Shown here in pieces: positions 1,246 through 63,567 of a stretch of 64,000 bases of DNA. The DNA lies in assembly GCA_965178125.1 (NCBI GenBank), contig OZ237774.1:248001-312000 (forward strand). Reading direction: 5' to 3'. Within the stretch, counting starts at the first letter, position 1; every line of letters starts with the position of its first letter. The notes under the pieces are model-generated. The model did not search any database, was not told the DNA's origin, and saw only the letters and a list, made by a program, of their open reading frames with translations. The DNA comes from Bilabrum cf. latius (lineage: Eukaryota). A program made the translations under genes and the position numbers.

Positions 1246-3078
1246 TCAATTTTCACTACCTTCACGTCGTTTTTTGGCCTAACCGCCACCCTAAGGCAAA
1301 TCAGCTTCTTCACGCGATCGTTTCTTGCTTTCTGCAGACTCTGCGCTGTCCTTTAGCTGAGTTTTCACCTCGCCACGTTCTACTGCAGTAACACCATCGA
1401 ACCATTGATGATCAAGACAATCCTGAGCTGATATTCTTTTGGAAGCATCGGGACAAAGAAGTTGCCTAACAAGATCTTTAGCGTCGAGAGACACTGATGA
1501 CCAGTATTTCGAAGGGAAACTCCACTTGACACCCGATCCCAGCTTGTTGAGTGCCTCGTCGCTGAATGGAGGTCTACCTGACAATACAATGTACATGATG
1601 ACTCCAACTGACCACATATCTGCAGACAAGCCATACCTCCCGGCACCAAAGTGAGTGTCTTTACGTTCCAATACTTCTGGAGCAAAATACTGCGAAAAAA
1701 AGAAAAATTTATGAAATTTATTAACAGTTTATATACAAGAGGAAACATGAATTACGTAGAGAGGGCCTTTGTGCTCGCTCACCTGTGGAGATCCAACATA
1801 AGTTTTGAGCCCTTCGAACCCCAAGGTTCTTGCTACACCAAAGTCTGCAAGAACCGGCACCGTATCACAAGCTGGGTCTTCACTAGCAAGCAAAATGTTC
1901 TCAGGTTTCAAGTCCCTATGCATGATCTCCCGGTCGTGAAGATATTTGACAGCATCCAGAATTCCTTTCATGAGAACTTTTGCTCTGCTTTCCGGGTATG
2001 CACCTTTGTCAACAAGCCTATCGAATAGCTCACCACCTCGTATCAATTCCATGAAAATGTAAATTCGACGTGCAGACTACCGACAAGTTTCCAATCGAAC
2101 AATATTTTGATGTGAGATCGAGTGTAACAGCTTGACTTCCCGCATCAGTTGCCCAAGCCTAGCTTCCGGCAGCATTTGGTACTTTCTCTTCTCGATGATT
2201 TTACATGCATACTCGCGTCCCGTCTTTCGATCGATCGCCCGCTTCACACTTGCATAAGATCCAGATCCCAGTACTTCTCGAATGTCGAACTGCCTTGCTA
2301 CGCTTTGATCACTGACTATGCTGTCGAATTCAGAAGAGACACCGGAAATTGACGGCGCATGCTTGAGCGCGCCCCCAGTTGCAGCTTCGCCCGAGTCTCC
2401 CGCCAGGCCATGAGCTAGCACCTGCTAAAACACATAGCCGGCCTGTTTGTAGTGCGGGGCGTTTGGGGCAAGCAAGGCAACCTGCGAACCGAGGTAGAGC
2501 ACAATGCAATCGGGTTCTTAGATAGACAGAAGTCAAAGCTGTTTTGAACCCGGCAGGGGAATGCTCTCACTTCATCCCCAGAATGTACCTGTCGTGGCTC
2601 TCCTTTGATGAGGCGCATTGAGTTGACGTACGTGCCATTCGTGCTCCTGTCCGTGATGTACACCGCCGGTGTGGTGGTCCCTGCAGACTCTGGAGCTTTC
2701 GTGCTCATGATACAGTGTTTGCCACTGATGTGGGGATTCTCAATGACAACATCACACGTTTTAGACCTGCCCAGCAGGAATTGCTGCTTGGGATACGCTA
2801 ACTCGATCGTCTTGGTACCCCCTGCGGCTTCGTTCACAATTCAAAATTATCAGCTAGAGATGGCCTAGTACAACAAAGCAAGGATGGTTGCAATACTTAA
2901 GTTTATAAATCTCACCCTCGGTCGACAACGGAACCAGCTTTCCCCAGATTCTAGGAAGTTTAGGCGGCGGATCAATATCGCCCAAGGCCTGCGACTGCGG
3001 CATGGTTGCCTCGTCATAGTAGGCTTGTGTCGGGCCAACACTATCTTGACTTGGTTGTCCAGCTCCTGCATGCGCCAT
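1246..3078 (-). CDS. CHK2: CHK2/Rad53-like checkpoint kinase (SQ/TQ cluster, FHA, Ser/Thr kinase); spliced; TAG read as Gln
   Basis: N-terminal SQ/TQ sites (PSQD, PTQ, QSQ). FHA motifs GRSKTCD, HISGKHC, DRSTNGTYVN. Kinase motifs GSGSYASV, ACK, HRDLKPEN, DFG, GSPQ|YFAPE across intron 1690-1782, DMWSVG. In-frame TAG at 2425 (YVF*Q), 2077 (inside the kinase domain), 1291 and 1279. First TGA at 1246. Confidence 0.85.
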
Positions 3079-3434
3079 CGTTGCGCAGAACTGAACCGTA
3101 GAATGTCGACAAAAAGAAGCCAAGATCGGTTCGTCTGTTTCAAATAACACTTCTTGCTGTATACGGTCAGCTAGCAACAAAGCTGTGGCTTGTGAGGTAT
3201 ATGCGACTTATCAACTGGCAGAAGCCACGCTTTCTTGGCAAACGTAGACAAACGAACGGTACCTTTAGGGCAAATTAGCAGCTTCTCTTGAGTTGCCGCC
3301 AGTGTGACGAGTCGGAGTTGATCCACCCGTTGGTGGTTCGTTCGTTCGGTGTATCCTCGTGCGCCTCAAAGTTTCCTTCGCGCCTAGCACTATAGCCTGC
3401 CAATGCTATCACTCTAAAATCATACAATTTATTG

Positions 3435-4589
3435 ATGAGCGCCCCAGGCAAGTTGCTATCATGTTCGGAGCAGCAAGTCAGCGACGAATTCCTCCGGACT
3501 TCAACTGCAACTACTGATGATCAGATTCGTTCGAGCAGCGGGGCCCCGGTACTGAGGGAGCTTCTACTAGCAAGAAAGTCAACTGGTGGTTGGAAGGGAT
3601 TCGTTAGCTTCGCCGGCAGAGATGACCGCCTTCGCAAGACGAGACTTCAGCTTGTGCTTTCCGGCGTTAGCCTGGGCGAGAATCGGCTCGCTGACGATCT
3701 CGGGGCATTCTCAGCATCATCATCATCGTTGTCTTCTTCCCTGGAGAGCACTACTTCTGACTCTTCCAGCGGCGAGGACGAAAGCGAGCAGGACGGCTGC
3801 CCCAGGACTTCTTACAGCCGGAGCATGAGCTCTCTTACTCAGGCTGGAACGAGCAAGGAACGAGCAGGGCGGTCACGTGATGTTGTTGATATTGCTGCTG
3901 CCGCTGCTACTTCTGCTGGTGGCGACAATTGTGGTGCTCAGGGAGTTCATGACACACTGACCCAGGCCCAGGCTGCTGCACGCCCTCGCCCAGCACCGAG
4001 TGCCGCCAGTCACAGGCACAGAGAGGCAGGCAGGGGCAGGGGCAGGGGCAGAGAGACTGGCAGGGGCACGAAAATGAGCTAGACAAGGAGCAGACTCGAT
4101 GACCGGCCCGCAAGCTGGCAGACCTCATAGACCCCATAGGCCGCTTCTCGTAGTAGTGGTGGTGGCAGCACGCCCGGGGCTGGGCATCCTCATAGCTCCA
4201 GAAATGGTCGCCGGGGGCCAGTCAGGTCTGTGTCCCGCGGTGTGACGAGTGAATCGGCCCCGGTCATGACCCTCCGCGGCATGTCTTGCGACCCCCGCGC
4301 CCCGGAAGGCACGCACGGCATGGGTCCTTTCTGGAGGCATGGGCCGAGCACTCGTTACACTTCCATCTCGGTCAGGGCACGGTCTGGGCTTGAAGTGAGG
4401 CCGGGCAGTGGCATGAAATCATTTGCATCAGGTGGCAGCAGGAGGACGATGATCAGTGAGAGCCACACGAGGAGGAGGCAGGGCGGTGCCGCCCTTGGGG
4501 TGCGTGGACACACGGGCAGTACTGGTGCTGGTGCTGGTGCTGGCACCTTTGGGCACGCACGATTCAGTGGAACCGGGGGATACACGTGA
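3435..4589 (+). CDS. Hypothetical low-complexity protein (~384 aa with TAG read-through)
   Basis: ORFs 3432-4082 and 4230-4589 share a frame and are separated only by TAG codons. Ends at TGA. No recognisable domain. Confidence 0.5.
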
Positions 4590-4755: not shown

Positions 4756-7700
4756 TCACACCACCCAGTACACACCCCCTTTTGCTCCCGGGAGCTGTAT
4801 GCCCAGTGAGGCCGCAATGCCCCCCTCGACCGCGGCCTCATCATCCCCGTCGCTGCCACCTCCGTCACCCATCCCACCACCACCCCCGAAGTCCACTTCA
4901 TCTTGCCTGCTTGCCCGTGCACTGGTGGAGGCCCTGGAAGCGGCACGGGGAGAGGGCAAGGGGGAGGCACAGGGCGAGAGAAACACATCCTCCTCCTGCT
5001 GTTTCTGATGCTGCTGCTGCTCCTGTTGCGCATCGTCGCATTCCTCCGCTGGTTCCACGGCGCTTTCTCCTGCTACGGCAGATCCCTGCGCAGCACTAAT
5101 TGCGAGATCCTCCGACTTTGACCACCTCCGCGGCTTCGACCTGCCCGCGGATCGCGCCACTCCCACGCCTCTCCTGCCCCCACGCCCCACCCGCCTCCCT
5201 ACCGATGTGCTCCGAAATGCGGCTAGCCCAGCTAACGAGCCACCAGCACCGCTGGATGCTGTTGCCGGTGCTGATGCCTCCTTAAGTGGCATATTCTTTC
5301 CATCCCCTCCACTCATCACACCTCTTCCCGGCTTGATCCCGTCCTCGCCCCCGGCCACAGGTAGAGTCCCGCCGCGGCCACCGCCCCACAGCATCTGCAG
5401 CAGCGATCCACCGGTGGACTGCTCTGCTACTGGTGCCTTCGCCGGATAGTCTGCCGTATCTGTACCATCGCCGTGCACTGCGCCCACAGCCTCGAGATCA
5501 ACGAGCCTCCGCTCGCGAGTCGTTGGTCCACCGGTGGATTGGGGCGGGGACACGAGCACCCGAGGCGCGCTCGCCGAACCGCCTGCGTGGATCGAACGCT
5601 TGCTCGATGCTCGCGGGCTGCACTGCACTGCATCGCAAGCAGAGTTCTCCATGGTATGTCCCTTCTCATTCCGAGTTGATGCTTGCCTTGAGGCCGCATC
5701 TGGTGCATCGGCACCACCGCTGCCGCGCGTGCCCGCAACTGGGTTGACTCGAACAAAGACGTCACCAGGGCCCATGGCACCAATCGGTGCTGCCCTGCCA
5801 CCACCAACGCTGCCACTGCTGAGCTCATCAAGCAGGTGGCTGGTCTTCGAGTGCCTGGCGCGGCGGGGCACGGCTCCGGGTCCGCTCGCCTCTGCTCCAC
5901 CAGCTCCGTCAGATGCACCCGCCTCGGGTTGCCCCGTGACACCGTCCTTGGAGCCGGATTGTTTCGATTCCGAGTGCTCGTATCTCCCCGCGGGTGCTTC
6001 ATCAAGCTCGGGCACGGCCAGCAATCGCCTGCCGCCTGCACCTGCCACTCCACTAGACGGAGAAACGATCACCAGAGCATCGTCTCCTGCTCCAGCCCTG
6101 CCTGGGGATGGAGACGACAGCAGCAGCTAGCCGTGAAAGCCACCACCGCGCGAGGGGGAGGTCAATAGCCCCTTCTGACTGGCAGGCGATGCATCCAGCG
6201 ACCTGCATCCCGCTGTCCGTACTCGCGTGGGGGTGGAAGCTGGGCTCCTGGACGGCCGCCTGTCTCGGAAGACCGCCCCTGTTGCCAGCATGTCCCTACA
6301 GCTGGCCATTTCAAGCGTCTGACGCCTGTGACGTTCCTGAGGCGATCCCGCCGGCTTCAAGGGCGGCTTGCTGCTCCCTCGATCCACCTTGTCCCCAGGC
6401 GCCTGCTTCTCGCTCGCCTCACGCATCCGGGCCACTGCTGCCAGCGTGGAGGCGCGCTTGAGCGGATCTTGCGCGGCGTCGGGTGCAGACCCGCCTTGTG
6501 CTGCACTTGAGCCGTCCAATTTTACAGCATTCTCACAGAGCAGTGGGTTTCCACTCATTGCAAGTTCCCGCCTGCTGGCGGGATCTGCGCCGCGGATGGC
6601 CGTGTGCAGCCGCATACCATTCTATGTACCACCTCCACCTCCCACCACCACGGCCGTGGCTTTCACCGGACTGAGTATGGCTCCCAGGATGGATTTCTTC
6701 CCTGCCTTTCCTTCTCCTGCGCCATCCGTACCGCCTCCATCTTCATCCTGGTTATCGTCCTCCAGATACCTGCACCACATCGCCGCCCCGATGCACATGG
6801 CACACGCAGCCAAGACGCTTCCGCTTATGATCAGACTCAGCGCAAGCACGCTCAGAACTGGACCCCCGTGCCCATCTAACTCATCCCTTCCGTTGACACC
6901 CCCCTCCATAGACATGCCCCCATGGAGGGGACCGCACACCAGCCTGGGGTCAGGCCCGCTGCACCCCGCGTGGGCGATTCGCACGGGCGGCGTCCACATT
7001 ACGTGGCCACTGTCGCTATCGCTAGTGTTCGCTCGTGCCAGGGACAACGGCAGGCGAGTCACCACATACACCTCCTTCAGTCCACCGGTGGAACTCACGA
7101 GGATAGACCGCGACTCCAGCCGACGGAACGTGACCTTGGCCCCTGCCGTGCCGTTCGAGCCTCCACCCGCGGCGCACTCCAGCTGAGCCGTCTCCATCCA
7201 CAGCTCGCTGGTGCTGGTATTCCCTGCTGCATCAGGGCATGGTGTTGGCGCAGCCACTCTTGAAACAAGTACTATGGATGCATTGGCAAGCTGCTCGATC
7301 CCCGCAGTAGAGCGCAGCTGCATGGCGAAAGTGGGGGACAGCTGCCGCTGCATGCTTTGCGCAATGTGCGCCTAGATTCGCACGGGAGCTGTCGTCAAAG
7401 TGATGGAAGCCCCTACTCCCGTGTTGCCTCCCGCATCGACGATTACAACCCGAGTAGAGGAGGGCCACAGACCGCCTTGAATCGATTCACTTGACTGGAC
7501 CAGAGGCACTGTACGCTGATACAGCGCTTTCACAGAGAGACCGGTGAGATCGGCATCGGACAATGGCACAGACACGGACTTTGATGGCAGCACTGCCGTA
7601 TGAGGGGCCGTTTGCAACAGATGCGCAGCAACACTGCTATCCGATGAACCTGCAAACATGCACCCATCATTACTGGAAGCGCACGACCCGTCTCTGCACG

Positions 7701-10700
7701 TGATCTCGCTGTCGAGACACGCGAATTGGGCAGCAGCAGCAGTCGGCAGCGAGATCACAGGCCCCGTGGCGTGCACCGCGACTATACCCGCATCCATGGC
7801 GGAGTTGCCCGACAGGATTGCCTCGTCCCACAGATCCGCTGTTCCCTGGCACGCCGGCGGCATTCGCCCAGTGCCCGGCACCAGTGGCACATGGCTGGAT
7901 GCAGCGCGCAGAGCACCAGATTCATCCCCAGCTGCGACGTATTGGAAAGCGTCCTCGTCAGTCATTGCCTTGTCCCCTCTCCACAGAGTCGCAGGAAGCC
8001 CAAGTGCGAGCAGGTCCTGTTCGTCTTCCCCCAAAGAATCTCTAGGACAGTCCCACGGGAACTCCACGCACCCAGTGCCGGCACCAGGGCAACTGATGGG
8101 GGCCGATGGGTTGCTGCACTCGGGCTGGAGGTAGCCTAGCTCGAGTGACTGGCGAGCTGCAACGCCGCCCGCATGCACCATCCCGGAGCACCCATCGGCG
8201 CGTGGAGCGCATCGCCCAAGGACAGGGCAGAACGAATACCCAGCTGGTGAGCCAGCACAGGACTCGAGCGTGCTTGCACTCCAGAACTCTGCGGGGGGCA
8301 GGGTGCGGGACAGACTAGTCGAGGCGATTGCAGAGCTCCCATGGGCTGTTGCAGCGGCTATGTCCAGTGCCTGCTGTGTGATGTTCGCCTGAAGCTGTCC
8401 GCTATGCTCGAGGATAGCAGGGAGTGCGATTGCTATTGTGCCGCCAGTTGCAGCCGGGTCCACACGCCCATCTCGGCTCGTATCCACAGGAAGATGCAGC
8501 ACGATACTGAGGTAGCGCCAGGAGAGCAGACCCCCAATGAGGGTCCCGCTGACAGTATTGCTCATGGGTCCAGAACCCTACTTTAAGCGCAAGGCCGCAG
8601 CTGAGCATGCCTGCAATACTGAGACGTTTGCGGGCAACGAAGCTGGGGCGAGCAGATCAACCAAACCCATCTAGTGATACGGGACCGCCAGGTCGGGCTG
8701 GAGCAGACGAACGCATCGCGTTGGCATGACAGTTGCTTCCACTGCAACCAGTGCAGCCCCTTCCACTTCCTCCTGGATGTTAGAGTTCCCCAGCTCTACC
8801 TAGAATTCCTCGGCATCCTGGATTGCCGATAGCGCGACCGTGCGAAGCGAGACGAGGCCCAGCTGCGCCACGTGAGCAACACTCTCACTAGAATGCACGC
8901 GTACGGACAGCAACGTGGACGCTCCGTCGCTTTGGATCTTTCTTAAAACCACACTAGCTCTTCCTGGATTCATGGCATGCACACGGACAGCCACGTGGCT
9001 GCAAGTGATCTGCGCCCTCACCTGGGACGCTCCGGGCATACCCTCCACGGGCGATGAGGAATCATGACTGCTCGTGGTATCGGTTTGGATAGAGCAGCCC
9101 TCGAGTTCTAGTTCCGACGCTGTGACAAGTGCGCGGTCTGCTGCATCTGCTTCGATCGATAATGCGAGCCCAGGGCCCCATGCCACGAGGCCAGCGCCTT
9201 TGATATCACCCAGGCTCGCCGTCGTAGGCAACTGCCCAATCCATCGAACAGTCGCATTGTGTGCGCCCAATGCGGCCGCATTTGCGGTTGCGGGCTGGTT
9301 CGAAAGGATCCATGCCGCGGTCTCAACAGCAACGGCCTGTCGAATGAAAGCAGTCTCCCCTGCAAGGAGATCGATGGAGCGGGCTGCACCGTCGCTCTGT
9401 TCGGTCGTTGATACGCCTGCTGTGGCATTCCCACCAGCACTTCTCCCTTGCTCTGACAATTCAGCACGGATGGCATCGACTATCAGGCTGCCCACAGTAG
9501 CCCCACTACTCCCGTCAATGACATTGACCATGGCGCTGCCTGGCAACTGGCACTGCACGCTCACAGCTGGTCCTGCCGGCCAAGTTAGTACCTGAAGGGT
9601 CGCATTGCATGCAGATGCTCCGGGTAAGCTCGTCCCATTGTCAGACGCACGCATCGCTTCCACGCTCAACTGGGATGCATCGGACCAAAGGTTGGCACCA
9701 GCACTGTCAAACAGTCTCAATCCGACCAACGATGCGTGTGCACTTCCGGCCTCTACTGTCAGAATATTGTCCGTCAGAGTCAAGGCAGAGTCAACATTCG
9801 TCCAACGAGCTTTCGCGGGGTCTGCATGACTTCTAGGCAGCTTCAGCAAGCCTAGCTCGTCTGTTCCTGCACCGAATACAACAGCTGCCTGGGAACCGCC
9901 CACCAGCCTGCCTCCGAACCAGATCCTCGTCACATAGTCAGCTCCGCTTTGCAAACACGAAGCATTGATTTGAATGGCAGCAAAGCCAAGCGGGTTGCTC
10001 GCCAGCTCTACCTCCGAGACGTTGTGCTGCAGGCTAGCTGTCACCAACGAGCAGCCCGACTCGTTGGATGCCGCCTCTGCACCAACCAGTCTCACCCACA
10101 CGTCGCTCGCCCTTACGTTGAGACCGTTGACAGGCTCGAACAAGAGCCATACGTCGCCATCCTGCTGCTGCTCGCCCCCCACAATCGTGTCACAGGGAGG
10201 CACATCCGCTGCCATACCTCCGAGCAGGTCGCACAGAGCCCGCACCATAGGCCCCTGCACACTGTCGGGCTCGGTCCCGGGCACGTGCGATACATCCCCC
10301 CACTGTGGTACAAGGTCGCTGCGAAAGATTGGCAGCTGAGTGCTCAGATCAACTCGCACCAAGTCAAGGTCCCGCCCTACGGTGGTGTTCACGTGCACGC
10401 TCTGCGTCTCCATTGGCAGCTCGTGGGGCGCTGATGGGGTCGTCCCGCCGGACTAATGTACGACAATGCGGTACGCAGTTCCATTGAGACACGTTGTAGT
10501 GCCGTGGCTTTGCTGCTGACAAAGGGTCAGTGTCAGCTCCAGCAGGCGGGTATGGCCCGTGCATGGTGCCGCCACATCGAACACATACTTGGCTCCACCA
10601 CCAAACGCCGCGGCTGCTACGGTTGTTGCCGATACGAGAGACCCTATATTCACATCCACAATCTCCCCAGCGTTTCCTCCGCTCAGGAATGGAACGGTCG

Positions 10701-13700
10701 CTACTAGCCCGCTAGTAGATGCAACAGCACCACTAGGCACACCCTAGTCCTCACCTGCTACTGCTGTGCCAATCAACACCTCCGCGGGTGGCGATACACC
10801 ACTGGCAAGCCAGACCGCGCCTACGTTTACTACCTGCATCTCTCTCGGACTCGCAAGCGGCAGAGGGATGCGCCTCCCGGTTACATCTTGCAGCAGGACC
10901 TCCATTGCTGTTCGCCTTCCACAGGTGACTGGCAGCAGCCTGGATTCGTCATCCGCAGGGGATGTGTGCATCATAGCCTCACGATCTCCAGCGGAATATG
11001 CTGAGCTGGATTCTAATTGCAATAGGGTTGTGCTTGGGCTTGCGGTCTGGCTGGACAGCACCTGCACGGGCATGGACTGCACCTTCTTCTGCACCCCACC
11101 CTGCTCCCATGTCAGCCTGTAGGCAATCGTGTCAATCGAAGGCGGGAAACAGCCTCCGATCCGGAAGTGCATTTGGTGCATGCCGCGACTGGTCACACTA
11201 TCCAACGTATCGATCGAGTCGTATGCAACGGCTAGCTCAGTACACCCAAGCAGATTGCCGGACTCCACGACCGCAGCACTGCGAGCCATCGAACCATTGG
11301 GATGCACGGTCATAATTGCCTCTCCATTGTCGGCATCCAATACCTCGAATCTTAGTCCGTATGCACCTAGCAAATCAGCCTCCTCTCCTGTACCACTACT
11401 GCCTGCAGCATCTGCCCCGAGGCCACAGCCACCGGGCAGCTGCAGCCCGTGCTCGGTTCGGAAGCTCACTGCCACTGAATTGAGCCCACGCCGGGATTCT
11501 ACACCCACTTCCAAACCGTTTAAAACGGCGACAGCTCCAGCCCCTTCGAAATGCGTCATGCGAGGATTGCACGGCACGAGTGGAATGACCAAGCCGGCAT
11601 CCGCTCCAGTGCTATCTGCATACAAGGCCACCAGCTCGCACGACTCCAGAGTAATTCCAGCCAGACTGTCATTGGACAGGCTGTTCAGGGCACCGGCATC
11701 CATGGCAGCATGCTCCAGCAGCTCCACCTGCGCATATTGTGGCCTCAACGCTCGTGCCTTCGCCCCGCATCCCGCCCGGCTCGGGATCGCCAGGAATGGC
11801 CGCAAGGTCACCCCGCCCAGTGTGTGGGCGCCTCGGATTCCGATAGTTAGCTCCTGTAAGTCAGAGCTCCCTTGAGCTGACTGGGACTCAATATATACCT
11901 CTAATGGTCCAGCTACGCACTGCCTGTCTCCAGTTCCACCGTTCGAAGCACGCGTGCACATGACTGGCATGACCCCGATGGGCAACCGACCGGCTTCCAG
12001 GCGAGTAAGGTCGTTGCCATGCATGTCTTTCAACTGTACACTGGCAAGTAGCTCTGTTTTGGTGTCGTTCATAAGACTAGTTGCGCGGGTAAGGACGGCA
12101 CTTGGACCTGCAGGGTGCACCTCAAGAGATAGTCCAGAGGCAGATGGCACGTCACCGTGCTCCAGCCCCAAACCACTTGGGACAATGTGTGCAGGCAGGG
12201 ACAGCTACAGGCTGCCATGGCTGGTCACGGGCAATCGCTGCACCGAAACTCCTGGTTCGTCAGCCAAGGGCATGCACAATTGCTGTGTCGGGTCTAGTTG
12301 GCCCCTGTCCAGGTTACACGAGAGCTGTCCGTGTTGTGCCGTGAGCACTGTGCATTTGGCGGGATACCAGCACATGTCACTCGACTGCATGTTATCGAGC
12401 AACTGTCCGTTCAGTTGCAGATCAGCCGTACTGTTCGCATCAATGGCCGCAAAGATGGACCGGTTCACCGATATCTGCCCGCCCGCGCGTCCCAGCGCAG
12501 GCAAGGAGGTCACCAGAGCCCCATCCCTGGACTTGACAGTGATACCCATGAATACAGCAGAGTGCGGCTTTGCATCATAGGTCAAGATCGAGTCGTTGAA
12601 AGCATCTGAATGTCCTAATGCTTGCATTGGGGAGATTCCGACCCCTATCTCCAGCTAGCTGAAGCTATCAATAGGCACCTATAGGGGCTCGAGCACCTCA
12701 AACGACGGTGCTGTCCCTTGGTCTCCATCGAGCGCGCCAGGGATCGGCAGGCCGCCCCAAGTCCACTGGTACTTACCAGGACTTGTAGGACGTACCACCT
12801 AGATTGATACACCTGCAGCATGTATGCCGTCAAGGGGGCTGGCACTGCTGCCCACCCATGCGGCACCCGCGACTTCTACTGGCATCTCGACAGTCTCGTG
12901 GTTACCGCCAGTGCCTGGGACAACCAGCCGAGCGCCCAAGCAGGCACGCGCTAACACCAGGGCTGCCGTCTGGTTCCAATCGTCACCCCGCTGGATTGCT
13001 TGCATCGCCCTGTGAAGATCCCTTGCATTCGTTGCAGAATCATTCAACCCACACGCTTGCAAAATTCCCACTGACGACTAAAACACAGCCGCAGCTACAC
13101 TCAGGGGCATGCCTCCCCCTCGTCCCCGAAGCAACAGACCGATCGTGTCTACGATCCCGCCTTCTACAGCCTCCTCGGGCTTGCCCCATGTCGGATCCAG
13201 CACGATTGAAGACGACATGTCAACTTCGGAAGGAAACGACGCCACATGCGCATCGCTGGATTGAGCTTGGTGAGCCTCATGCCATGCAATCAAGTCACTA
13301 GTATTGACCCCGATTGTGTCATTGCTACCCATGGCTCGAACCATCCTATATTCCACGGAGCAATTCACCGGCAGGTTCCCATCGTGCATGGTCGACCTTG
13401 CTGGAAGGGCGGCCATTGAGAGTGCATACGAAGCAGCTAGAGGCGTACCCATAGAGGGCGCGGGAGTCACGACCGAAGGGCATGCACCTGCAGCCACAAG
13501 CCCGCGCCAGCTTCCCACAGCATCGTCAAGCCACTCAGCAACTTGGAGTTCGGTCGAAACGTCTAGTGCAAGGGATGCAACCCGCTCGAGGGCTGCTGCA
13601 GTGGACTGCACCCCGGCGCATAGCATGAGCGGTGTCTCAACGCCGTCGATTCTGGCTCTGAATCGATACGCTCCAGCCACAGGCAAGTCTGCTTCAATGT

Positions 13701-33612: not shown

Positions 33613-33771
33613 AACACTGTGTGACTACGTTCGGAGGCAACGAATTGATGTATATATTTTCATTATGACTATCCAATACAGGTTTCCGATGTAAAAAATA
33701 CAGTTGAAAAACCTTGTAATGGTTTCCGCAGAGAAGGGATACTATGTTGCGCTGCTGGTAATCTGATACCC

Positions 33772-36007: not shown

Positions 36008-36618
36008 ATTGCGCATTCACAGTAGTGCCCTGCGAAAGCACGCACCATGATGATGGCTTCGCGGTTCCAGGTGATGGGCACTTGCTAGCCCGCCGCACCG
36101 TGCGCGGCTCGGCTGCATCCAGGGATAGCAAGTACTAGCAGAGGTGGGGTGGGGTGGGGTGGGGTGAGGGTGACCCCTACAGGAGGGGTGGTATTGGCGG
36201 GCCTCGGCAAACGGCCAGCGTGTGGCTTGAGCAGGCCCCGCGGCCACTGCCAGTGGCACTCCTTGGCAAGCCGCACTGCACCGCGACATGATGGAACCGA
36301 ACCGCAGTCATGCGCTGCATTGTCGTGCCGGAAGCAGAGCACTGCGCTCCGCTCCCAGCCATTGGTAGATGCGGTGTGAGCACTGTGCTTTGATTAGTTT
36401 TGGTGGCACGCGATTCCTGACACCCTCTGGTAGTAACTCCAAGATCTGGCGTATATGATGTGAGTGCCAAACATACGATACATTCCAATGCAAGTATCGT
36501 ACTAGACACATCTATCGCGAGCTGCGCAGGATTTGTGCACTGGCGCCGCGCGTCGATCCAGATAGGTTCCGCTATTGGCGTGCAGCAACTACCGCGTCCA
36601 TCCTTATCCTCAGCTGAA

Positions 36619-42344: not shown

Positions 42345-42515
42345 GTTACAAAGGCAAGTGTTCGGCTTGTGGTAGGCAGTAGTTGCATTGAAGAAATCGA
42401 TGCGATTAAAGTCAAATTAGAACGCCACAAATAATAGGCGCCGCCAGTCATCAGGTTCCGCACCTTGACAGACCGACGACAGGTTTTGCGTCCCACCTCC
42501 CAGGATTGGTTCAAG

Positions 42516-43457
42516 ATGGCTGCGGTACGGCAAGCTTCTAGGCGCATGTTTTCATCAACAGCAAAGTCTATGGGAAAGATTAAGAGGAAATTGGTCTTTT
42601 TTGGGGCACCAGGTGTCGGCAAGGGCACATTCGCTGGACGAGTGTCTCCGGCGCTCCGAATACCGGCTATTTCGACCGGAGACATAATTAGGGCTGAGAT
42701 CAAGGGTGGTACTGATCTGGGAAAGAAGTGCTAGGTGAGAGATTGGGCTGTTGGTCCCAGATCTCGTAGACACGAGCCGTATCACGCCATCTTGCAGGAC
42801 TCGCTAGAACTGTGGCAGCTTTTCTGAACAGTTCTGTGCCCTGAAACCTCGAGACTCCACGAGTATTGCAATCATTTTAGTGTGCATGTGTTACTCTGTA
42901 AGATTATGTCGAAGTGCCATGATTCCTTGCAGGAATACTCAGACAAGGGTGACCTGATCCCGGACGAGCTTGTAGATGCCATGGTGGAGAAGCGTCTCGG
43001 CGAGCCGGACGCAAAGCGCGGCTTCATCTTGGACGGATATCCGCGCACGGTTGGTCAGGCCGAAGCCCTGTCAAAGTACATGGATGTGGACGCAGTGGTG
43101 AACATCACGCTGCCGCAGCACGTGCTCATGGAGAAGCTGCTCGGCCGCCGGGTGTGCGAGCAGTGCGGCAGGGGCTTCAACGTGGCTGCCATTCACGAGG
43201 GCGACTTGGACATGCCCCCGCTGCTCCCGAAGAAGGGCGACTGTGACGAGTGCGACGGCGAGCCGACCCTACTGACGCGCGCTGACGACACGGAGGAGGT
43301 CGTGAGGAACCGGCTCGAGGTGTACGACAGAGAGACTTCCCCGGTGCTGAAGTACTACCAGGACCAGGGCAAGACCCAGGATTTCGCGGTGAAGAAGGGG
43401 ATCCAGGATGTGCCGAGGCTATTCGAGGACTTGGGAATCACCGTGGTGGAGGCGTGA
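42516..43457 (+). CDS. Adenylate kinase with mitochondrial-type presequence
   Basis: [29 protein letters not shown] region RRVCEQC, RADD. Exon 1 ends in TAG (42732-42734) directly before the GT-AG intron 42735-42932, giving [17 protein letters not shown]. Confidence 0.93.
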
Positions 43458-48066: not shown

Positions 48067-48226
48067 ATGACGAATACACGATTGATGGTACAGAAACACA
48101 CATGACAAAGTTGCTGACCGACCGAGTGCAAGGATGTTCTCTGCGGCCCACATCGCGCTACCCAAGTGCAGTGCGACCAACTTGAAGGACAGAATGAACA
48201 GAAACCCGACCCCATGCTCTCACTCG

Positions 48227-49666: not shown

Positions 49667-49903
49667 GCTCCCGTCCGTTGCGTTTGCAAGCGTGCGCGTG
49701 ATCCCTTGGCAGGGTTAAGTCGACCGAAAATACCTCCGGTATCTAGTCAAACTATGATTAATACTGTATTTTGCTGTTGACGATGCGATTTATAGCTGTA
49801 ATCAACTGTTCTTGGAGTTAATGCAAATTTCATGTTGGCGGTATTCCGGCTCCGCATCCACGATACGGTCCACTTTTTTCGATTCACCGTTACAGGCTCA
49901 GTG

Positions 49904-51166
49904 ATGCAAAAAGTCTCCTCATCAGCGTAGAGATCAGTGGTCCGAGCCAGTTATTCAATCGCGGCCTGCTCTAGGCGAGCGATGTGGTGCTGCTGCGGCA
50001 GTCATGCCGCTGCAAAGGGCCACGTCAGCAAGGGCGCGGGTGCGATCCTGTCTACGACAAAAGCGGTATCAGCCAGCAGGGCTCTTTCTACAACCAGCTC
50101 TAAAGCGCAAGGAATCTCAGGACATAAGAGGAAATTCGTAGTTTCGGGTGCAAGTGGAATGCTCGGCACGGAGCTTGGCACCATTTGCGTACGGGACGGC
50201 ATCGAGGTCGTGAAGCTCGTCCGCAAACCGTCTGGCAAGCCAGACGAAGCATTTTGGGACCCACTCAGCGGCAAAATCGAGAAGGAAAAGCTTGAGGGAG
50301 CTGACGCGTTCATTCACTTGGCAGGCGAGAACATCGGATCAGGGGACGGCCTGCTCGCTTTCACCGGACGCTGGACGGAAGACAAGAAAAAGAGAATCAT
50401 CCGAAGCAGGCAGTTAGGAACGAAGCTTCTTGCGGAAACTGCAGCGGGGCTGAAGCATCCCCCGAAAGCGTTCATCAGCGCAAGCGGCGTAGGTTTCTAC
50501 GGCGACAGCGGAGACACGGTGCTGACGGAGGACAGGCCCAAAGGAGACGGATTCCTGGCAGACGTGGCCTCTGAGTGGGAACTTGCGACCAAACCCGCGA
50601 GTGACGCCGGCATCCGCACGGTAACCGCCCGCATCGGGGTCATTCTCAGCAAGGAGGCGGGTGCCCTGGAGAAGCTGTACCTGCCCTTCTTCCTTGGGCT
50701 TGGGGGCCCCATAGGCACTGGGGAACAGTGGTTCTCGTGGATCTCCCTGAGGGACGCGGCGAGGGCCCTGAGGTTTCTGGCTGTGGGGGAAGGTGCATCG
50801 CATGGTGGTGCAGCCGCTGCAGGTGCTGCAGGAGAGCACGGCGGCAGCGAGAGCGAGGTCGAGGGCAAGGGCAAGGGCGGAGATGATGCATCTGATTAGG
50901 CATGGGAGCAGAAAGCCAGGGGTCCGGTGAACGTGTGCTCTACTCCCTGCAGGCAGAGCGAGTTCGCCACTGCGCTGGGCTCGGCCATGACCCGCCCTGC
51001 CATCATCCCTTTGCCCTCGTTTGCAGTCAAGCTCATGTTTGGCGAGATGGGGGAGGAGACGATCCTCGTGTCGCTGCGCGGGGACAACAGCAAGCTCACA
51101 AAGGAGCTGGGGTTCAAATTGATGGACGAGACACCTCTGGACGGATGCAAGCAGGCGCTGTAGTAA
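49904..51166 (+). CDS. SDR39U1/TIGR01777-type NAD-dependent epimerase family protein
   Basis: SGASGMLG, IHLAGENI, SASGVGFYG, GGPIGTGEQWFSWI. It continues through TAG 50897 into the family C-terminus GPVN..EFATALG..RP...LPSFAVKLMFGEMG and ends TAG-TAA at 51161-51166. Confidence 0.88.
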
Positions 51167-52251: not shown

Positions 52252-53796
<1,545 letters not shown>

Positions 53797-53983: not shown

Positions 53984-56900
53984 TCACTCCCCGTCCTCGT
54001 CCTCGTCCTGCTCTTCATCTTCCTAAAACGCGTCATCATCATTATCATCATCGCCATCGCCACCGCTGTTGCCCCGGCTCTTGTGGCCTTGTTTCTATCC
54101 AGCGCGCGCATTGGATGCATCTGATGCAGCACCCGCTTTGTCCTGCTCCTCGCCATCGCTGTCATCGTTCATCTCCTACATCTTCTCTCTAGCCTTGGCA
54201 CTGCTCGCGCGCCGGCTCCTCCCACTGGATGCACTCGTCACACCACTGTATGCACTCGTCACACCACGGCTGCCACCGGCGCCCTTGGAGGCCATGGCGG
54301 CCGCGCCTGCGGCGACGGCCGCGGCCGCTTTGGCTGCCGCGTCGATTGCCGTCCCTGCCCCGCCGCTGGATGCGCCACCATGCGCTGCACCCTTCCCAGT
54401 CGGCATCCACCCTTGCAGATCGAGGGTAGGTCTCTTGGCCTTCTTGGTGTCGTTGGTGGGATCGGACCTGTTGTCCTCGTCGACCAGGTTCCGCCACTTG
54501 TCCTTGAGGTTCACTGAGGTTCGCCCGTTCGCCGCGAGCACGCTCTTGAAAGGCTCCGTCTTGAGAATGACGGCCCACTTGCCCAGCCCGAACCTCGACA
54601 CGCCCGCTCGCAGAGCAGAGACCTCACCGGGTGTCCATGCCTTCCTCCGCTTCTGGCGCACCTGCTCGGCAAGCACGCTCGGGAGTAGCATGGAGGCTCC
54701 TTTCGTGGACACGGAGATGACCCCCGCAGGGGGGTATGCGGGGTAGAAGGGGTTGATGGCCTTGGGGTTGAGTGAGGGACGGACCTTTGCTGGCTGCGGC
54801 TGGGCCTGGAACACGGCTTCCTGGGCCAGCTCCATCCTGACTGCGTGAGGGTCCGAGTGGTCCACCGGGCGGTTTGCGATTCCGAGTTGCTCCCGGATGT
54901 CCCGCAGATGACCACCTTCCTTCCTGACGTCACTGATGCCGATGACGTCACGGAGCGTCTTACCCTGACGCTTGCCCTTGCCCTTGCCATTTCCGCTGCT
55001 GTCCTCCCCACTGTCCTCCGAAGAGGACCCAGTCCGGCTTTGGCCACCTTTCCGGCTTTGGCCACCTTTCCTACCCGTCTGCTTGCCATCATCGTCCTCG
55101 GCATCCGTGGGGTCCTGACTGCTGCTCCCATCGCTTGCGCTGCCGTGCGCTGCACCCGCCGCCGTCGCCGCAGCCCCGAGCAGCACTTTGCCATTGGCAG
55201 CACCATCGTGCAGTGCACCTTGATCCTAGATCCAGCACCTTCTCCCCCTTCGCCGGCCACCCCTGCCACCCCCTTCTGCTTTGCTCCTGCCCTTGCCCTT
55301 GCTCTTGATGTTGCTGCCGAGGGCACTGCCGGTCGGCACCACTGGTCGAGGCGTTGGAGTCAGCGTGTCGATCGTGTCGTTCTGGGCCTGTGCAACGCCA
55401 TGCAGTGCACCCGTTGCGGACGGTGCGACACCACTCGTCACGCCTGCAAGCGCAAGGTCGGCGGTATCCGCCGATCCCGTGCTCCGATTGGATGGTGAGG
55501 CATCACCGCCTGCCATGCCCCTGCCCCTGCCCCTGGCCCGCCCCCTGCTCCCGCTCCTGCCCCTGGGCCTGGATCTGGATCTCGACTTGGTGGACCAGAT
55601 CATCACTTCATCGTCGTCGTCGTCATCGCTGTCTTCCTCCTCGTCCTCCCTTGCACGCTGCTAGTTCGCTTGCTGCTTGTGCTCGTCCTTGCCATTGCTG
55701 CTCCCTGCAGGCACCTGGCCAGCGACTCCTCGCTTCCTGCCACTGCCGTGCGCTGCACTTCCTCTGTCCCCGCTGTCCCCGCTAGCACCCCCTTCACTCC
55801 CCCCATCTCCCCTTGGTGGGGACACGTCAGACAGCCCGCGGGGCTCAGTGGCCTGCGACGAACCTTCTGTAGACGTGCGGTCCACCTCTTCCACTGCGGA
55901 ACCGGCGGCGCCGCGTGACGGAGAACCCCTTCCGCTTCTTCTCGTACTCAGCCGCCCGCTGCCCACCACAACGCAGCTCGCATCCCCGGGTGCACCATCG
56001 TGCAATGCACCTGATTTGCGCCGCCTGTGCTGGCTGCGAGGTGCCCCGGCCAATGATCGGGCATTGCTCCCTTCATCTTCGTCCTCGTCCTCGTCCTCGT
56101 CCTCGCTGCTGCTGCTGCCCCCCACTTCGACCACTTCGCCGTCCGAGTCAATCTCCTGGCGCCACGCAGGTTCCATGACCCCGTTCTTGTTCTTGCTCCG
56201 ATCACTGATCCCACCTTGACCACCGGTTGATTTGCCGCTCGAACGCCCAACACGAGTGGCTGCAGATCGAGGCTTGCTTGATCCCAAGTCCTCCTCTTCG
56301 TCCTCATCCTCGTACAGATCTTCGCTGCCGTAGTCCGCCTGGAAACCATCGTCCACTCCATCATCGCTCGGGGCCCCTTCCCCATTGACTCCTCCCTCCT
56401 GGTCTCCTTCCGCCATCGCCCGCTGGCTACCCCTGCCCCGGCCCCGGCCCCGCCCCCGGCCCCGGCTCCTGCCCCTGCCTCTGCCCCTGCCTCTGCCTTT
56501 GCCCCTGCCTGCGACACTTGGTCTGGGTCGCTGGTTTGATCCACTGGTGGGTTTCGAAGTGCGGCGGCGCTTGGCAGGTCGCCCCTCCGGAGAGTGTTGG
56601 TCATCATCACCTCCGGCCCAATCATCTCCTTGACCACTTTCGGCGCTGCTGTCATCGCTGTCATCACTGCCAGGCTCGGCATAGTTCACGCTCCTGCTCC
56701 TGGCCCGGCTTGACCTGCGCGTGTCTCGGCGCCTCTTGCCGCTGGCTGGGGCTGGGACAGTATTAGTCTTGGAGGCACGACCGGGACCATCGGCCTTGCC
56801 CTTGCTTCTACTCTTGCTCATGGTCTTGCTCCTGGTCTTGCTGGCGGACACCTGCTCATTCTCAGCCTGGCCAGCACTCTCATCGTGGTGGAGCTCGTGG

Positions 56901-59900
56901 CTTTGACTGTTCTTGTTCATCGGTGCAGAGCCATCCGCTGAAGCTGACAGGCCACCACCCACCAGGTGCGCGATGGAGGCAGGCAGGGACATGTTCAGGA
57001 TTGGCTCGTCCTCGCTGTCTACAGACCCTGACTCGGACCCTGACTCCGACTCGGAGCCGTTTGTTCCCTGGCGGGTCCTCCGTGCCCTAACCCCGCCCAT
57101 GCCTCTTCCATGGCTGCCCGTGCCCCTGCCCCTGCTCTTGCTCCTGCTCTTGCTCTTGCTCGCCGACCTCCCTCGCGGTGTGGAGATCCACACGATGGCC
57201 AAGTTCCCCCCCTCGTCTTCCTCGCTGCTGCTACTGCCCCTGCTCCTACTCCTGGTCCTGCTTTGATTTATGCCGTTGATGCCGGTATCCACGCCATCGT
57301 GCGATGCACCTGTACCGGCACGTAGCCCCGTGCTTCGCGACCTCGATTTTGACCTTGGCTGCACCCTGCCCCAGTTGGGCCTCTTCCTCTTCCTCCCGCC
57401 GGAGCCACTTTTGTTCCCTGATCCGATCCATGCGCTCCTGACCAGGTCACCCCCGACCCCCTCCCACTCGTCATCCCCGCTGTCTTGCTCGCTGCCCGAG
57501 TCTGTGGTCGTGGACGAATCCATAATCTCTCCCGTGCTGGAGCTGGAACTGCCACTGCCTGCGTCCTTAACCCCTTCGTCCATCTCCAACACGCTGCCGT
57601 CCTGCCGCCTGCCACCCTGCCTACCGATCCGCCGGCGACCGGTGGATCGACGGGTCCCTTGCTTCCCCCGGGGTGATCTGGGATTGGAGTTGGAGTTGGA
57701 GTTCGAGTTCCCACGCTCGGCTCTCCGTCGAGGCCCACTCTTTACCCTACCCCTCCGTTCAACCCTCTTCTTATTTCTCTCCTTCTCCTCTTCTTCACCG
57801 TCCTCTGGCCTGTCGCTGTCCCAATCACTATCGCCACCACTGGAATCGTCCTCGCTGCTGCTGGCCCCCGCCCCTTTGCGAACACCCTGCCGCCCTCGTG
57901 ACCGCCTTTGGCCACCCTTGGCTTTCGCAGCACCCCTGACACCGCCACTCCCCTCCTATGCTCCCTGAGCCTGTCCACCGGTGTACTTTGCACCGCGGGT
58001 CACCTTCTTGCCACCGCCTGCTGCACCCGCACGACCACCGCCACGGGCCGCGACCCGCATCCCTGCGCGTGCCCACCACCCCTCCCCTACCGCTTCCCGG
58101 GGTGCACCACCATGCACTGCACGCAGCGGTGTCGGGCCTCCGCTGCTCCTGTCGCTAGGCCCTTCTACCTCTCCATCCCTCTGGAAATCGACGCTGGAGG
58201 AACAGGGGTCGTGGTGGAGCACCGAGTCGGACAGGGGGGTCTGGCTGCGCCTGCCAGAGGTAGCCCCCTGCGGGGTGGTCAAAGTGGAGCCGGCTCCGAT
58301 GGAAAGACTCGATGAAGATGCGCACACCATCGTGGGCTGCAGATCAGTCCACTCGTCACACCGGGATCCGGATCGCACAGCCAGCACTGCCGCAGCTGCA
58401 GCCATCGATGCCATTTTGGGCCACATGTTGGACGCGGCTCCCGACTCGCTCCACACCGAGTCCTCGCCAATGCGGCGCATGGCTCGGCGGGGCCTCTTGG
58501 CCCCGAGTGCCTCAAAGGCGCCGCGCAGTACGTTCCGCAATCCCTTGCCGCGCATAGCAGACGGAAGCACTTGCGATCTCAGCCGTGGGCCGGCAGCCAC
58601 TTGCCAACCATGGCGCGGGATGGTTCCATGCAGCGCACTGCCGTGCGCTGCACCCTTGTGGGGAACAGGGGGTACCTGCTGCGTGGGAGCAGGCGGCGGC
58701 AGACCGGTACCGCCGTGCGCTGCACCCGCGCCAACCCGCCTGCGGACTGGCATCTGACCCCCCCTGCCGCGCCGACTCGCCTGCCCGGCCAGCATTCCGA
58801 TTCCGAGTTCCCCGATGCGAGGTGAGTAAGTTTCATTCTGGCCACGGGCAGGGGACTTCCCCTTACCGGGAGATTTCCCCTGGGGGGTTCTCCCCGGGGT
58901 GGGGTCATGCAGCAGCAGGGCTGTTTCCCTTGCTTCCTGCCTCCACCGGTGGGGTGAACCTGACATACTCCTGCTCCTGCTCCTGCCTTGTTCCCTTATT
59001 TCGTCGTCGTCATCGTACGGCACGCTAGCACCATCGTGCGATGCATCTGACCGAATGGGTACCTCATCCAGCGCCACGTCTCCCGGCCCCAACCCCCCAT
59101 CATGCACCCCCCCATGCACCCCCCCATGCACCCCCCCATGCACCCCCCCATGCACCCCCCCATGCACCCCCCCATGCACCCCCCCATGCACCCCCCCATG
59201 CACCCCCCCATGCACCCCCCCATGCACTACGCCCGCCCCGCCCCACCCACTCGGCTCCGAGCCCCCGCCGTCATCGAAACCGTGATCTGGAGCACCACCA
59301 TGCGCTGCACCCTCAGCACCGAGCCCCCCCTGAGGCGAGACTGCCTGTGTCTGGGAATCAAACCCGGGAGCCGGCAGCACGTATGCCCCCGAGTCCGATT
59401 CTCCGCCGCTGGGCTGGCTCTGACTCTGGCTGTGGCTCTGGCTCCGACGCTGAACTCGGTCTCGGTCTTGATCTTGGTCAGCTCTAGCAAGCCCGTTAGG
59501 TCTCGTATTGTCTGCACCGCCGGACACGCCCGCACCCCTTGCATCCCCATCGTGCGAGGCGCCCGAGCCAGTCCCGTTCGCACTGCTAGCCGAGTTTCGC
59601 GCCGGATCAACGCACTCCTTGTCTGGGTGTGACGTCTGCACTGTAGATGGCGCCGATTTCTTTGGGGCCTCTCGACGTCCAGGCGCTGCTTTCGGATCTG
59701 CTGCACTGCTGCCAGTGGTCGGGGCGTCCAGCCCGCCTCTTTCCTCGTCGGCGATCTCTGCCTGGGTCTGCTGCCACTGGGCCACCTGGTCCTGAACCCA
59801 CGCTGCTTCCGAGTCTTCAGAAACGTCGCTGTCTTCGTCTTCGTTTCCTGCCTGCTCTTCTCCCTGCGAGTGCTTTACGGCGATCGCAGGTGCCTTGCTC

Positions 59901-60253
59901 GTGTCCGCAGCGGTGGCGCTCGGCTGCCGGTTCGGAGTCGAGATTTCTGGGCTGACTACGCTGGACGGTCCTGTCGCATTACCTTGGCTCCCAATCGACT
60001 CGTGCATGGAAGTCTGCACGGCCTGGTCGGCCGAGTTGGGGCCGTCCGATTCAGGGGCGATTTGAGCTGGTAGCTCTTTCGAAGACTGCAAAAAGTCAGG
60101 CGCCCTACCAATATCTGTCATCTTTTGTGTTTTCGGATCTAGCACAATTCCGAACAGGAGAAGAGATCTTGCTGTCGCGTCTAAGTGAGGTTGGCGCTGC
60201 CGGCTTGAGGCCACACCCGCATTGGCCAACTGCTTCTTCTCCGAAAGCGCCAT
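53984..60253 (-). CDS. ~2,090-aa largely disordered protein with a telobox Myb domain near the C-terminus (TRF-like telomere-repeat-binding candidate)
   Basis: Myb RKAWTPGEVSALRAGVSRFGLGKWAVIL...GRTSVNLKDKWRNL. Four track ORFs share one frame joined by TAGs at 57956, 55661, 55226, 54176, 54095 and 54023. TGA at 53984. Confidence 0.75.
59101..59227. repeat. Perfect 12-bp tandem repeat (CATGCACCCCCC) x10.5 encoding GGVH repeats
   Basis: Directly visible; lies inside the telobox-protein frame. Confidence 0.95.
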
Positions 60254-60474
60254 TATATTTCCCGTGGCGTATTCTTACTGCGCGTAAGTTAAATTTAACA
60301 GATATGCACAAAACTACCAGTGGAAGCGGTAGGAAATGAAATGGTTGGCTCAAATCTATTTGAATCGTTCTTGTTATGTGCATGGTTCCGGTTTCTGGCA
60401 CACTGCCGGCTGCAGCTGCCAATGATCACGCAACAACCACTCGCTTCAAGTAGTGTGGCTCCGCCCTCATCTGC

Positions 60475-61789: not shown

Positions 61790-62244
61790 TCGCGAGCCTT
61801 ATCGTGATTCCCTGCTCGAGTAAATGCACAGCGGTCGCGGATCCGATACCGCGTCGCGCCGCCGGGCATGCGACCATGCACTTACTGCACCGGTCGCTGC
61901 GCTACCCTGATACAATATTATGCACCATTCATCAGTGAGTATGCGGACGATGTGTGTGTACCCTGTCCAGACGATCCTTCCCGGATTCTGACGCTGAAGC
62001 GAGCGACATGAAGCTGTTGAGCTTTGCATAAAGCCGCCAGCGGACCATGAGCCAGCGCAAGCGGGGCTGTGCCATGTGGTGAATGAGGCTGCCAGTGTGT
62101 TCGAAGCACCACTCCAAGAAGAAGAAGTACCACCGGCCGACGGTGAGGATGCTGCAATTGGTGGAGAAGCCGGTGGTGTGTCCGTACTTTCTGCACGAGC
62201 AGTACTCACTCCACGGCGCCTCAGCCACCCTCTGCCTCATCTGC

Positions 62245-63567
62245 TCAGTGCAAGCCCGGCAAATCGTCGCACAGCATCAGCGGATCCGCCCTGATCGATT
62301 CCAGAGCGTCCCTGGCACCCCCTACCGCCACCTCCCAGCAGCCCCTCCCACCACCATCCCGCCGCTTCAGGTACCAGTCCGCATCCCGCACGCCGTGCGC
62401 CAGTGCCAGCACGCATCCCCCGTGACCTCCAGCACACGCCGCTGTCAGAGCGTTCCAGCCGTCTCCGTCCAAGGCCTCGTGACCGCCCGCCGAACGGCCC
62501 AGCCTCAGCCGCTTGGACAGCTCCATGGGCCTGCCCTCGCTCGCTGCCTGGAACACCATGCTTGCGTCCCTGTGGGTGTCATGGGCGTGCCTCCAATGCA
62601 GCATGTGTTTCATCCTTCGCCTGAACGGGTTGTAGTACTGCACGCCCCTGAGTTCTTCTGGGTCTGTATCCCGGAAGAGCGCATCGAGCAGTTTGGGCGG
62701 GTCGTAATCATGGTCGTTCAGAGCTTTGACGATCACAGGTATCGATGAGAGTGGCCTCAAGTGTTTTGCAGCCATTACTTTCTGGACGAATCGCAGTCGG
62801 CTGGTCAGGAAGGCGACGGATCCCTCTTCATGCTCGCACTCGAGCGGGAGGTTCGCATGAAGCATCGGTGCCATCCATGTGGTTGTGGCTCTCGGTTCCC
62901 TCTAAGTCACAAGGGTTTGCAAAGAAGCATAGAATGGGTTGTATACTACTCCGTTGTGGCTCTCCAACTGCACCAGAGATATAACAGTGACATCGAAGTA
63001 AGCTGCGAATCATTGACACCATGCCTGATGGAAATTTATACGGGTATTAGCGTTTGTCGAAGCATTATTCTCACTGAGTAGTGCAAACGATACAAACGTT
63101 TATAGAACAGCATGAGCTCGTAGAATTGCAAGCTACGACCTTTGCGAAATACAAGGCTATCGTAGCCATGCCATTTAGCCTCGCTCGAGAGGACTCCTCG
63201 TCGAACTTGGGCCAGGGCTTCATGGTACTGTTTCTAGCTTTCAACCAAGTTCTACTTGTTCTGTGCCAGCTGACAGAGTACGCCGTAGTGCGACGTATCA
63301 AGGGCGTCGACCAAGGGTTCACAGAGTTTCCTAAATTCCTGCGGACGAGTGGAGCTGTGCATAATGCGCGGGCATTCGTTGACCATTTATATCAAATAAT
63401 ATACATACTGTGATTCCTACCTGGTTTGAAATCATCATGCGGGATATTGGCTTGGTGCATACCGCGATCATGACAGCAGGATCTTCCAGATCTCTGCCAG
63501 TAAAGCTGTGCTCGAGTTCTCTCGAATCATTTATGAGCTCAAGGATAGTATCACCAATGTTCTCCAT
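62245..63567 (-). CDS. Ankyrin-like repeat protein, tandem copy 2
   Basis: Exons nearly identical to copy 1, introns diverged. TGA at 62245. Confidence 0.65.

Follow-up and report, generated by a model that had tools for sequence, protein, structure and literature searches.

TAG as a translated codon, with TAA and TGA as stops, in the nuclear genes of a GC-rich, intron-bearing eukaryote

We analysed a stretch of 64,000 nucleotides, hereafter the window, that corresponds to positions 248,001 to 312,000 of contig OZ237774.1 in the assembly of Bilabrum cf. latius (GCA_965178125.1), and all positions below are window coordinates. In the nuclear genes of this window TAG is translated as an amino acid, and TAA and TGA are kept as stops. 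The explanation that we regard as highly probable is that the nuclear code has lost TAG as a stop and reads it as glutamine (Gln) or glutamate (Glu), that TAA and TGA terminate translation, and that this is a trait of the lineage.

The reassignment is most readily seen when open reading frames are computed under alternative stop sets. The longest frame in the window has 871 codons with the three standard stops, 898 with TAA taken as sense and 1327 with TGA taken as sense, against 7167 with TAG taken as sense, and TAG-as-sense alone yields frames of 7167, 2096 and 1062 codons:

4756..26259, minus strand: giant open frame of 21,504 bases and 7167 codons, 40 TAG, ending in TGA, without a Pfam domain
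53987..60274, minus strand: low-complexity protein with a Myb domain, 2096 codons, 6 TAG, ending in TGA
27033..30218, minus strand: ankyrin-repeat frame of 1062 codons with an ankyrin repeat at its start, 7 TAG, 6 of which lie in the part treated as exon

Together, these three frames amount to 10,325 codons with 53 TAG, no TAA and no TGA inside. From the rate at which TAA and TGA occur in the off-frames of the same genes (0.0239 per codon for both), the chance of 7167 codons free of either is about 1e-75. The figures of "~40 TAG" and "21.4 kb" given for the giant frame in a first-pass annotation of this DNA were right, and its statement that the genes show no frameshifts stands for the long frames.

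Conserved genes tell the same story. Pfam matches in the window are to FHA plus protein kinase, adh_short, Na_Ca_ex, ADK, Epimerase plus DUF1731, Ank, ParcG, PP2C, KRR1 and AAA, and the conserved genes identified in this way are broken by TAG only, without other in-frame stops. The genes and sites outside the three long frames are as follows, the last three being free of TAG:

1249..2840, minus strand: FHA and protein kinase gene (CHK2/Rad53-like) of at least three exons, TAG at 2425-2427, 2077-2079, 1291-1293 and 1279-1281
32476..32478, minus strand: TAG within a translated ankyrin repeat, where it separates the helix pair from the G-A-D turn, with Pfam ankyrin repeats in the neighbouring exons
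33649..34782, plus strand: short-chain dehydrogenase (SDR), ketoacyl-reductase-like, TAG at 33928, 33967, 34123 and 34198, ending in TGA
36613..39471, plus strand: Na/Ca exchanger, exons ~36613-36736, 37101-37494 and 37656-39471, TAG at 37313, 37870, 38053 and 38461, ending in TGA
40493..42265, minus strand: gene of no assigned family, 4 TAG (42001, 41170, 41080, 40807), intron 42038-42269
42513..43457, plus strand: adenylate kinase, bacterial-type, exon 1 closing with the codon TAG at 42732-42734 (followed by GTGAGA), exon 2 from 42933, ending in TGA
49895..51166, plus strand: SDR39U1-like epimerase, TAG at 49928, 50897 and 51161, TAA stop at 51164-51166 directly after the last TAG
52462..53796, plus strand: KRR1 exon, one TAG (53680) in a basic tail, ending in TGA
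43724..46302, minus strand: CDC48-like AAA ATPase exon, 0 TAG, gene ending in TGA
47164-48066, plus strand: PACRG, conserved, 0 TAG, ending in TGA
48230-49714, minus strand: PP2C, conserved, 0 TAG, ending in TGA

In the kinase gene, the TAG at 2077-2079 lies within the kinase domain and that at 2425-2427 just before it; in the exchanger, the TAG at 37313 falls in the first repeat (NCKX) and that at 38053 in the context GGA TAG CAG CAG. Every site named in the first-pass annotation (2077, 2425, four in the SDR, 37313, 38053, 42732, 50897 and 32476) is indeed an in-frame TAG, and its central claim, that TAG is a sense codon across intact nuclear genes, is supported by the long frames, by the stop-set control and by the conserved domains. 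TAG is nonetheless a rare codon, accounting for 72 of 14,977 codons in 16 coding segments of the window.

Concerning the two other stops, the ratio of CAA to CAG (129:422) predicts about 16 TAA alongside the 53 TAG of the three long frames, and none is observed in their 10,325 codons; the code is therefore a TAG-only one, and a reading of both TAA and TAG (UAR) as glutamine (table 6) is ruled out. Ten window genes could be traced to their ends, nine stopping at TGA and one, the epimerase, at TAA. TGA is the usual stop in window genes, and no window gene requires TAG as its stop.

Sixteen public runs are listed for a 9.9-kb stretch of the window, 13 of which hold at least part of it, and we aligned contigs of four runs to positions 36050-52000, a range that takes in the genes from the exchanger to the epimerase. 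Run X1, which may be the window's own source, has one 17-kb contig over the stretch with no differing letter, and the low-depth contigs of run X6 also show no letter differing from the window. Given these identical DNA contigs, the TAGs are not an assembly error. Runs X5 and X7 belong to two different studies, and their contigs pass over six segments with GT..AG ends (CT..AC for minus-strand genes) of 89-364 bases, at 36737-37100, ~37495-37655, ~42733-42930, ~47075-47163, 42038-42269 and ~46303-46567. Because these six introns are skipped, the contigs of both runs, neither of which is recorded as RNA, derive from spliced RNA. Their exon pieces match the window without differing letters, and the TAG sites of the exchanger, the gene at 40.5-42.3 kb and the epimerase lie within spliced pieces at 11 of 11 sites in X5 and 8 of 11 in X7; in the adenylate kinase, the splice joins the TAG that ends exon 1 in frame to exon 2. 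TAGs inside matching spliced contigs have therefore survived splicing and, in the major RNA form, have not been edited. Retention of TAG in mRNA, which the first-pass annotation had put forward as a check on its reading, is thus borne out by the spliced contigs of X5 and X7.

The same use of TAG extends to a relative. A metagenome scan with the window AAA protein returned 62 loci, one of which (L001, 1518 bases) is a close orthologue, 93% identical. Over 405 ungapped codons, 375 residues are identical but only 188 codons, and L001 must therefore come from a different organism in which the gene is under strong purifying selection. Its 439 codons include five in-frame TAG and neither TAA nor TGA; the stop is a TAA, at roughly the place where the window AAA gene ends with TGA. 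Since this divergent relative uses TAG likewise, the code is the trait of a lineage rather than of a single strain. TAG usage is sharply different between the two, the window AAA gene having no TAG and that of L001 five in 439 codons. We also found fragments of the giant protein in other assemblies, 66-85% identical (808 of 1057 aligned positions), which begin and end where in-frame stops would lie, the stop codons themselves not being seen. Relatives of the giant protein turn up solely as short assembly fragments. A representative search with a 1200-residue piece of it gave one fragment, covering no TAG site, and a metagenome scan with a relative's fragment gave no match.

In terms of mechanism, the favoured explanation is that TAG no longer acts as a stop in the nuclear code and is read as a polar amino acid, presumably by a transfer RNA (tRNA) with a CUA anticodon, that a change in the release factor eRF1 may have accompanied the shift, and that TAA and TGA, mostly TGA, still terminate. 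Some points weigh against a code of this kind. The shorter coding segments were delimited by TAA/TGA, and their lack of in-frame TAA and TGA is thus partly by construction; the comparison with public runs used contigs, not raw reads, so that rare variants are dropped and minor RNA editing could escape; and no tRNA with a CUA anticodon was found in the window by ARAGORN or Rfam, only the tRNA-Asp being confirmed among the two calls:

33541-33613, minus strand: tRNA-Asp(GTC), just upstream of the SDR gene, called by ARAGORN and confirmed by Rfam
57634-57723, plus strand: tRNA-Gly(TCC) of 90 bases, ARAGORN call without Rfam confirmation, antisense within the Myb-protein frame

As to which amino acid is inserted, the residues opposite TAG in relatives point to glutamine or glutamate, with serine (Ser), leucine (Leu), lysine (Lys) and tyrosine (Tyr) disfavoured. 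Over 13 sites TAG faces Gln four times, Glu four times, Ser twice, and His, Ala and Asp once each, with no Leu, Lys, Tyr or Trp. Ten of these partners are Gln, Glu or Ser, each of which has a codon that differs from TAG by a single base (CAG, GAG, TCG). The eight window TAGs compared with giant-protein relatives face Glu three times, Gln and Ser twice each and His once, and the five TAGs of L001 face in the window CAG (Gln), GAG (Glu), GCC (Ala), CAG (Gln) and an Asp in a gapped tail. Ordinary residues are kept in the giant-protein alignments at 32 of 41 Gln, 32 of 45 Glu and 72 of 93 Ser, and in the AAA alignment none of the 16 ordinary Gln and 28 ordinary Glu is exchanged for the other residue. 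Calculated from the observed exchange frequencies, the giant-protein sites make Gln and Glu equally likely and Ser about 1000 times less so, and the L001 sites favour Gln about 3- to 13-fold, a Gln reading needing one Gln/Glu difference and a Glu reading two. TAG sites are far less conserved than ordinary Gln or Glu codons and lie mostly at tolerant positions, and the small tally of facing residues is weakened for this reason.

Sequence context and precedent lean towards glutamine. We calibrated a neighbour-composition test with resampled sets of true Gln sites and of true Glu sites from these same proteins, and obtained +1.5 for the TAG sites, compared with means of +6.1 (standard deviation, sd, 6.7) for true Gln sets and -13.5 (sd 8.5) for true Glu sets. 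This favours Gln about five-fold. Low-complexity tracts of acidic residues supply the signal, and codons that arose by point mutation may in any case be scarce there; simple, uncalibrated neighbour composition gave no discrimination between residues. The context GGA TAG CAG CAG is a weak argument for glutamine. Most of the published TAG reassignments treated in the excerpts of PMC11687900 and PMC5304391 go to Gln.

Several results pull away from glutamine. TAG faces Gln at only 4 of 13 sites, against a retention of 78-86% for ordinary Gln (the count for Glu is likewise 4 of 13). The kinase TAG (2077-2079), in a well-conserved column, stands opposite Glu in 5 of the 5 alignments shown, which involve two proteins only, CaMKI and CaMK1D. 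Glu is common in this column across that kinase group, and Glu or Lys is usual at the position of the ankyrin TAG. Distant homologues of L001 have Glu or Asp in 16 of 18 cases at site 795, and, with an ambiguous gap, in 41 of 51 at site 728, the window having Gln at both; at site 787 they have Ala 17 times, Glu 3 times and Gln not at all out of 23. In the column of the SDR TAG at 34198, 111 of 120 bacterial FabG carry Met, which fits neither Gln nor Glu. In CBR4, the one solved eukaryotic relative shown, the same column holds Thr; the homologues retrieved for the SDR are distant, mostly bacterial FabG of at most 48% identity, and none of its four TAG columns is informative, the other three being mixed or gapped. 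The TAG sites of the adenylate kinase and the exchanger fall in variable columns; at that of 37313, where the first-pass annotation gave Gln for NCKX proteins, Asn or Asp is found in the nearest solved exchangers. The sole coding TAG pair between paralogues within the window faces Thr inside a multi-base change and is uninformative.

On balance, we place glutamine slightly above an even chance, glutamate well below it, and all other amino acids taken together at a small residual share. The "most likely glutamine" of the first-pass annotation survives as a leaning, carried by context and precedent; it does not stand as established, with Gln and Glu each at 4 of 13 sites and Glu in the kinase column.

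The alternative that fares best is that TAG encodes glutamate, with TAA and TGA kept as stops, a tentative possibility that draws on much of the evidence just described. To the four Glu among the 13 sites, Asp and Ala add two that are one base step from GAG; the kinase TAG is opposite Glu in all five alignments shown (CaMKI, CaMK1D); and distant homologues have Glu or Asp at two TAG columns of L001 and Glu without Gln at a third. Moreover, TAG to CAG being a transition, a Glu codon would often be expected to face Gln, and a Gln codon should mostly face Gln itself. However, a Glu reading of L001 requires two Gln-to-Glu differences, in an alignment whose 44 ordinary Gln/Glu sites show no such exchange, and the TAGs lie outside the acidic tracts where Glu codons cluster (+1.5 against -13.5, sd 8.5). 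Glutamate with TAA as a stop is, furthermore, not among the codes named in the excerpts consulted, and the one ciliate with UAG=Glu reads UAA as Lys (PMC11687900). We consider it doubtful, though worth stating, that the window belongs to an undescribed non-ciliate lineage of at least two divergent members, one known from an environmental contig only, in which UAG alone has been reassigned, to glutamate. If UAG=Glu were true, this would be the first such code with UAA and UGA both stops.

TAG might also carry two meanings, sense inside genes and terminator near their true ends, as in the context-dependent codes of ciliates. Nowhere in the window could TAG act as a terminator except at the end of the SDR39U1-like gene, in which TAG is followed immediately by TAA (51161-51166); this end leaves room for a dual stop and sense TAG and counts against a purely sense one, and TAGs also occur within the last 40-60 codons of the kinase, the Myb protein and KRR1. 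Against this, TGA closes nine of the ten traced genes and TAA the tenth as well as the L001 orthologue, the basic tails past the late TAGs look like real protein, and one gene has up to 40 internal TAGs, and we thus judge a dual meaning unlikely.

Serine is the identity of TAG in the green alga Scotinosphaera, where TAA and TGA are stops, and this published precedent for the same stop-codon pattern (PMC8271138) gave weight to a Ser reading, as did the first four TAG sites compared, two of which faced Ser, and the giant protein, for which the neighbour-composition test taken alone leans to Ser over Gln. The Scotinosphaera code was the leading alternative at that stage and was rejected on the later sites. 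Ser now stands opposite TAG at only 2 of 13 sites, compared with a retention of 72 in 93 for ordinary Ser; none of the five L001 sites and none of four sites in closer fragments faces Ser, and the calculated likelihood on the giant-protein sites is some 1000-fold lower than for Gln or Glu, leaving serine very improbable.

Finally, that the TAGs are untranslated, through pseudogenes, assembly errors, unrecognised introns or RNA editing, is hardly conceivable in view of the identical DNA and RNA-derived contigs from runs of several studies, of the TAGs inside exons bridged by spliced contigs, of frames without frameshifts or other stop codons, and of an L001 orthologue with its own TAGs under strong purifying selection.

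A translated TAG in this window looks like a young or weakly used codon, found at unconstrained positions and facing Gln, Glu or Ser in relatives. In the four most conserved segments (AAA, PACRG, PP2C and adenylate kinase exon 2) there is no TAG in 1812 codons, compared with 72 in 13,165 codons elsewhere. Such usage bears on the codon capture and ambiguous intermediate models of code change.

Concerning the host, the first-pass annotation pictured a flagellated, intron-bearing, GC-rich protist unlike a ciliate, and the window agrees with the first three of these traits: GC content is 0.48-0.65 per 4-kb bin and about 58% overall, the introns are of the GT..AG type, and PACRG, a cilium/flagellum gene, is identified by Pfam. 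Long contigs, introns of 89-364 bases and the GC content suggest that a ciliate host is unlikely. Comparisons of the FHA-kinase, PP2C, PACRG and adenylate kinase point to different groups. Against solved structures, PACRG is closest to mammals (200 bits, with Chlamydomonas at 177), PP2C to plant clade-A enzymes (130, with human at 113) and the adenylate kinase to bacterial enzymes (140 bits).

Other features of the window may be described briefly. The giant protein, of about 7150 residues from its first Met, is rich in Ala, Gly and Ser; a hydrophobic segment lies near residue 6390, and the tail is long and of low complexity. The adenylate kinase has four cysteines in its lid and an N-terminal extension that looks like an organelle-targeting sequence. 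A tandem segmental duplication occupies 60300-63700 with an offset of about 1.77 kb and includes duplicated ankyrin-like genes at 60478-61239 and 62248-63009, both on the minus strand and with 91% protein and 96% DNA identity, whose C-terminal part resembles the gene at 27033-30218. A simple repeat at 35906-36007 encodes Ala-Pro dipeptides in one minus-strand frame. The first 4000 bases, which hold the FHA-kinase gene, have a GC content of 0.48, compared with 0.54-0.65 in the remainder.

Unless this lineage has already been described, it represents a new instance of a type of code change already on record. Alterations of the nuclear code are rare and those that split UAG from UAA rarer still, being attributed in the excerpts of PMC11687900 and PMC5304391 to a handful of lineages, mostly ciliates. 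An apparently culturable organism that is GC-rich and intron-bearing, with long contigs and RNA data, would be a useful system, in which one could learn by what route UAG escapes eRF1 when UAA does not, and what tRNA takes UAG over. There is also a practical side: gene calling under the standard code would shatter its proteins, the 7167-codon gene into more than 40 pieces, and the correct code table is therefore required before the assembly is annotated or used in phylogenomics.

Among known codes, UAR is read as glutamine (table 6) in many ciliates, Dasycladales, Trentepohliales, Cladophorales, diplomonads, oxymonads and Amoeboaphelidium protococcarum. These show that stops have become glutamine outside ciliates too, but TAA is sense in them and not in the window. 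Amoeboaphelidium (UAR=Gln, as cited in PMC6299283 and PMC5304391) came into consideration because runs labelled with several organism names contain the window's sequence; its genomes have a GC content of about 40% (Table 1 of PMC10608142), against 58% here, and with TAA not sense here this candidate was ruled out. Reassignment of UAG alone, as in the window, is known to Leu in the uncultured rhizarian exLh (PMC5304391) and in one phyllopharyngean lineage (PMC11687900), but Leu appears at none of the 13 window sites. Precedents for TAG=Glu are the oligohymenophorean ciliate PL0344, with UAG=Glu and UAA=Lys, and the peritrichs and Blastocrithidia, with UAR=Glu (PMC10553269, PMC11687900); in all of these TAA is also reassigned, whereas it terminates in the window. 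A literature search, in which few subscription journals were covered, returned no GC-rich non-ciliate lineage with a TAG-only change besides Scotinosphaera. This ulvophycean (Scotinosphaera sp., Ulvophyceae), which reads TAG as Ser and stops at TAA and TGA (PMC8271138), is likewise a non-ciliate eukaryote with the same stop pattern, but in the window TAG faces Ser at 2 of 13 sites only. The pattern of table 15, UAG alone to Gln, has been reported in the fornicate Iotanema spirale (PMC5304391) and in the ciliate Protocruzia tuzeti and two phyllopharyngean ciliate lineages (PMC11687900). The window resembles these in having TAG as sense, TAA and TGA as stops, TAG as a minor codon and, likely, a CUA tRNA as its decoder; they are, however, an anaerobic metamonad and ciliates, whereas the window has a GC content of about 0.58, introns of 89-364 bases, a 21-kb gene and long contigs.

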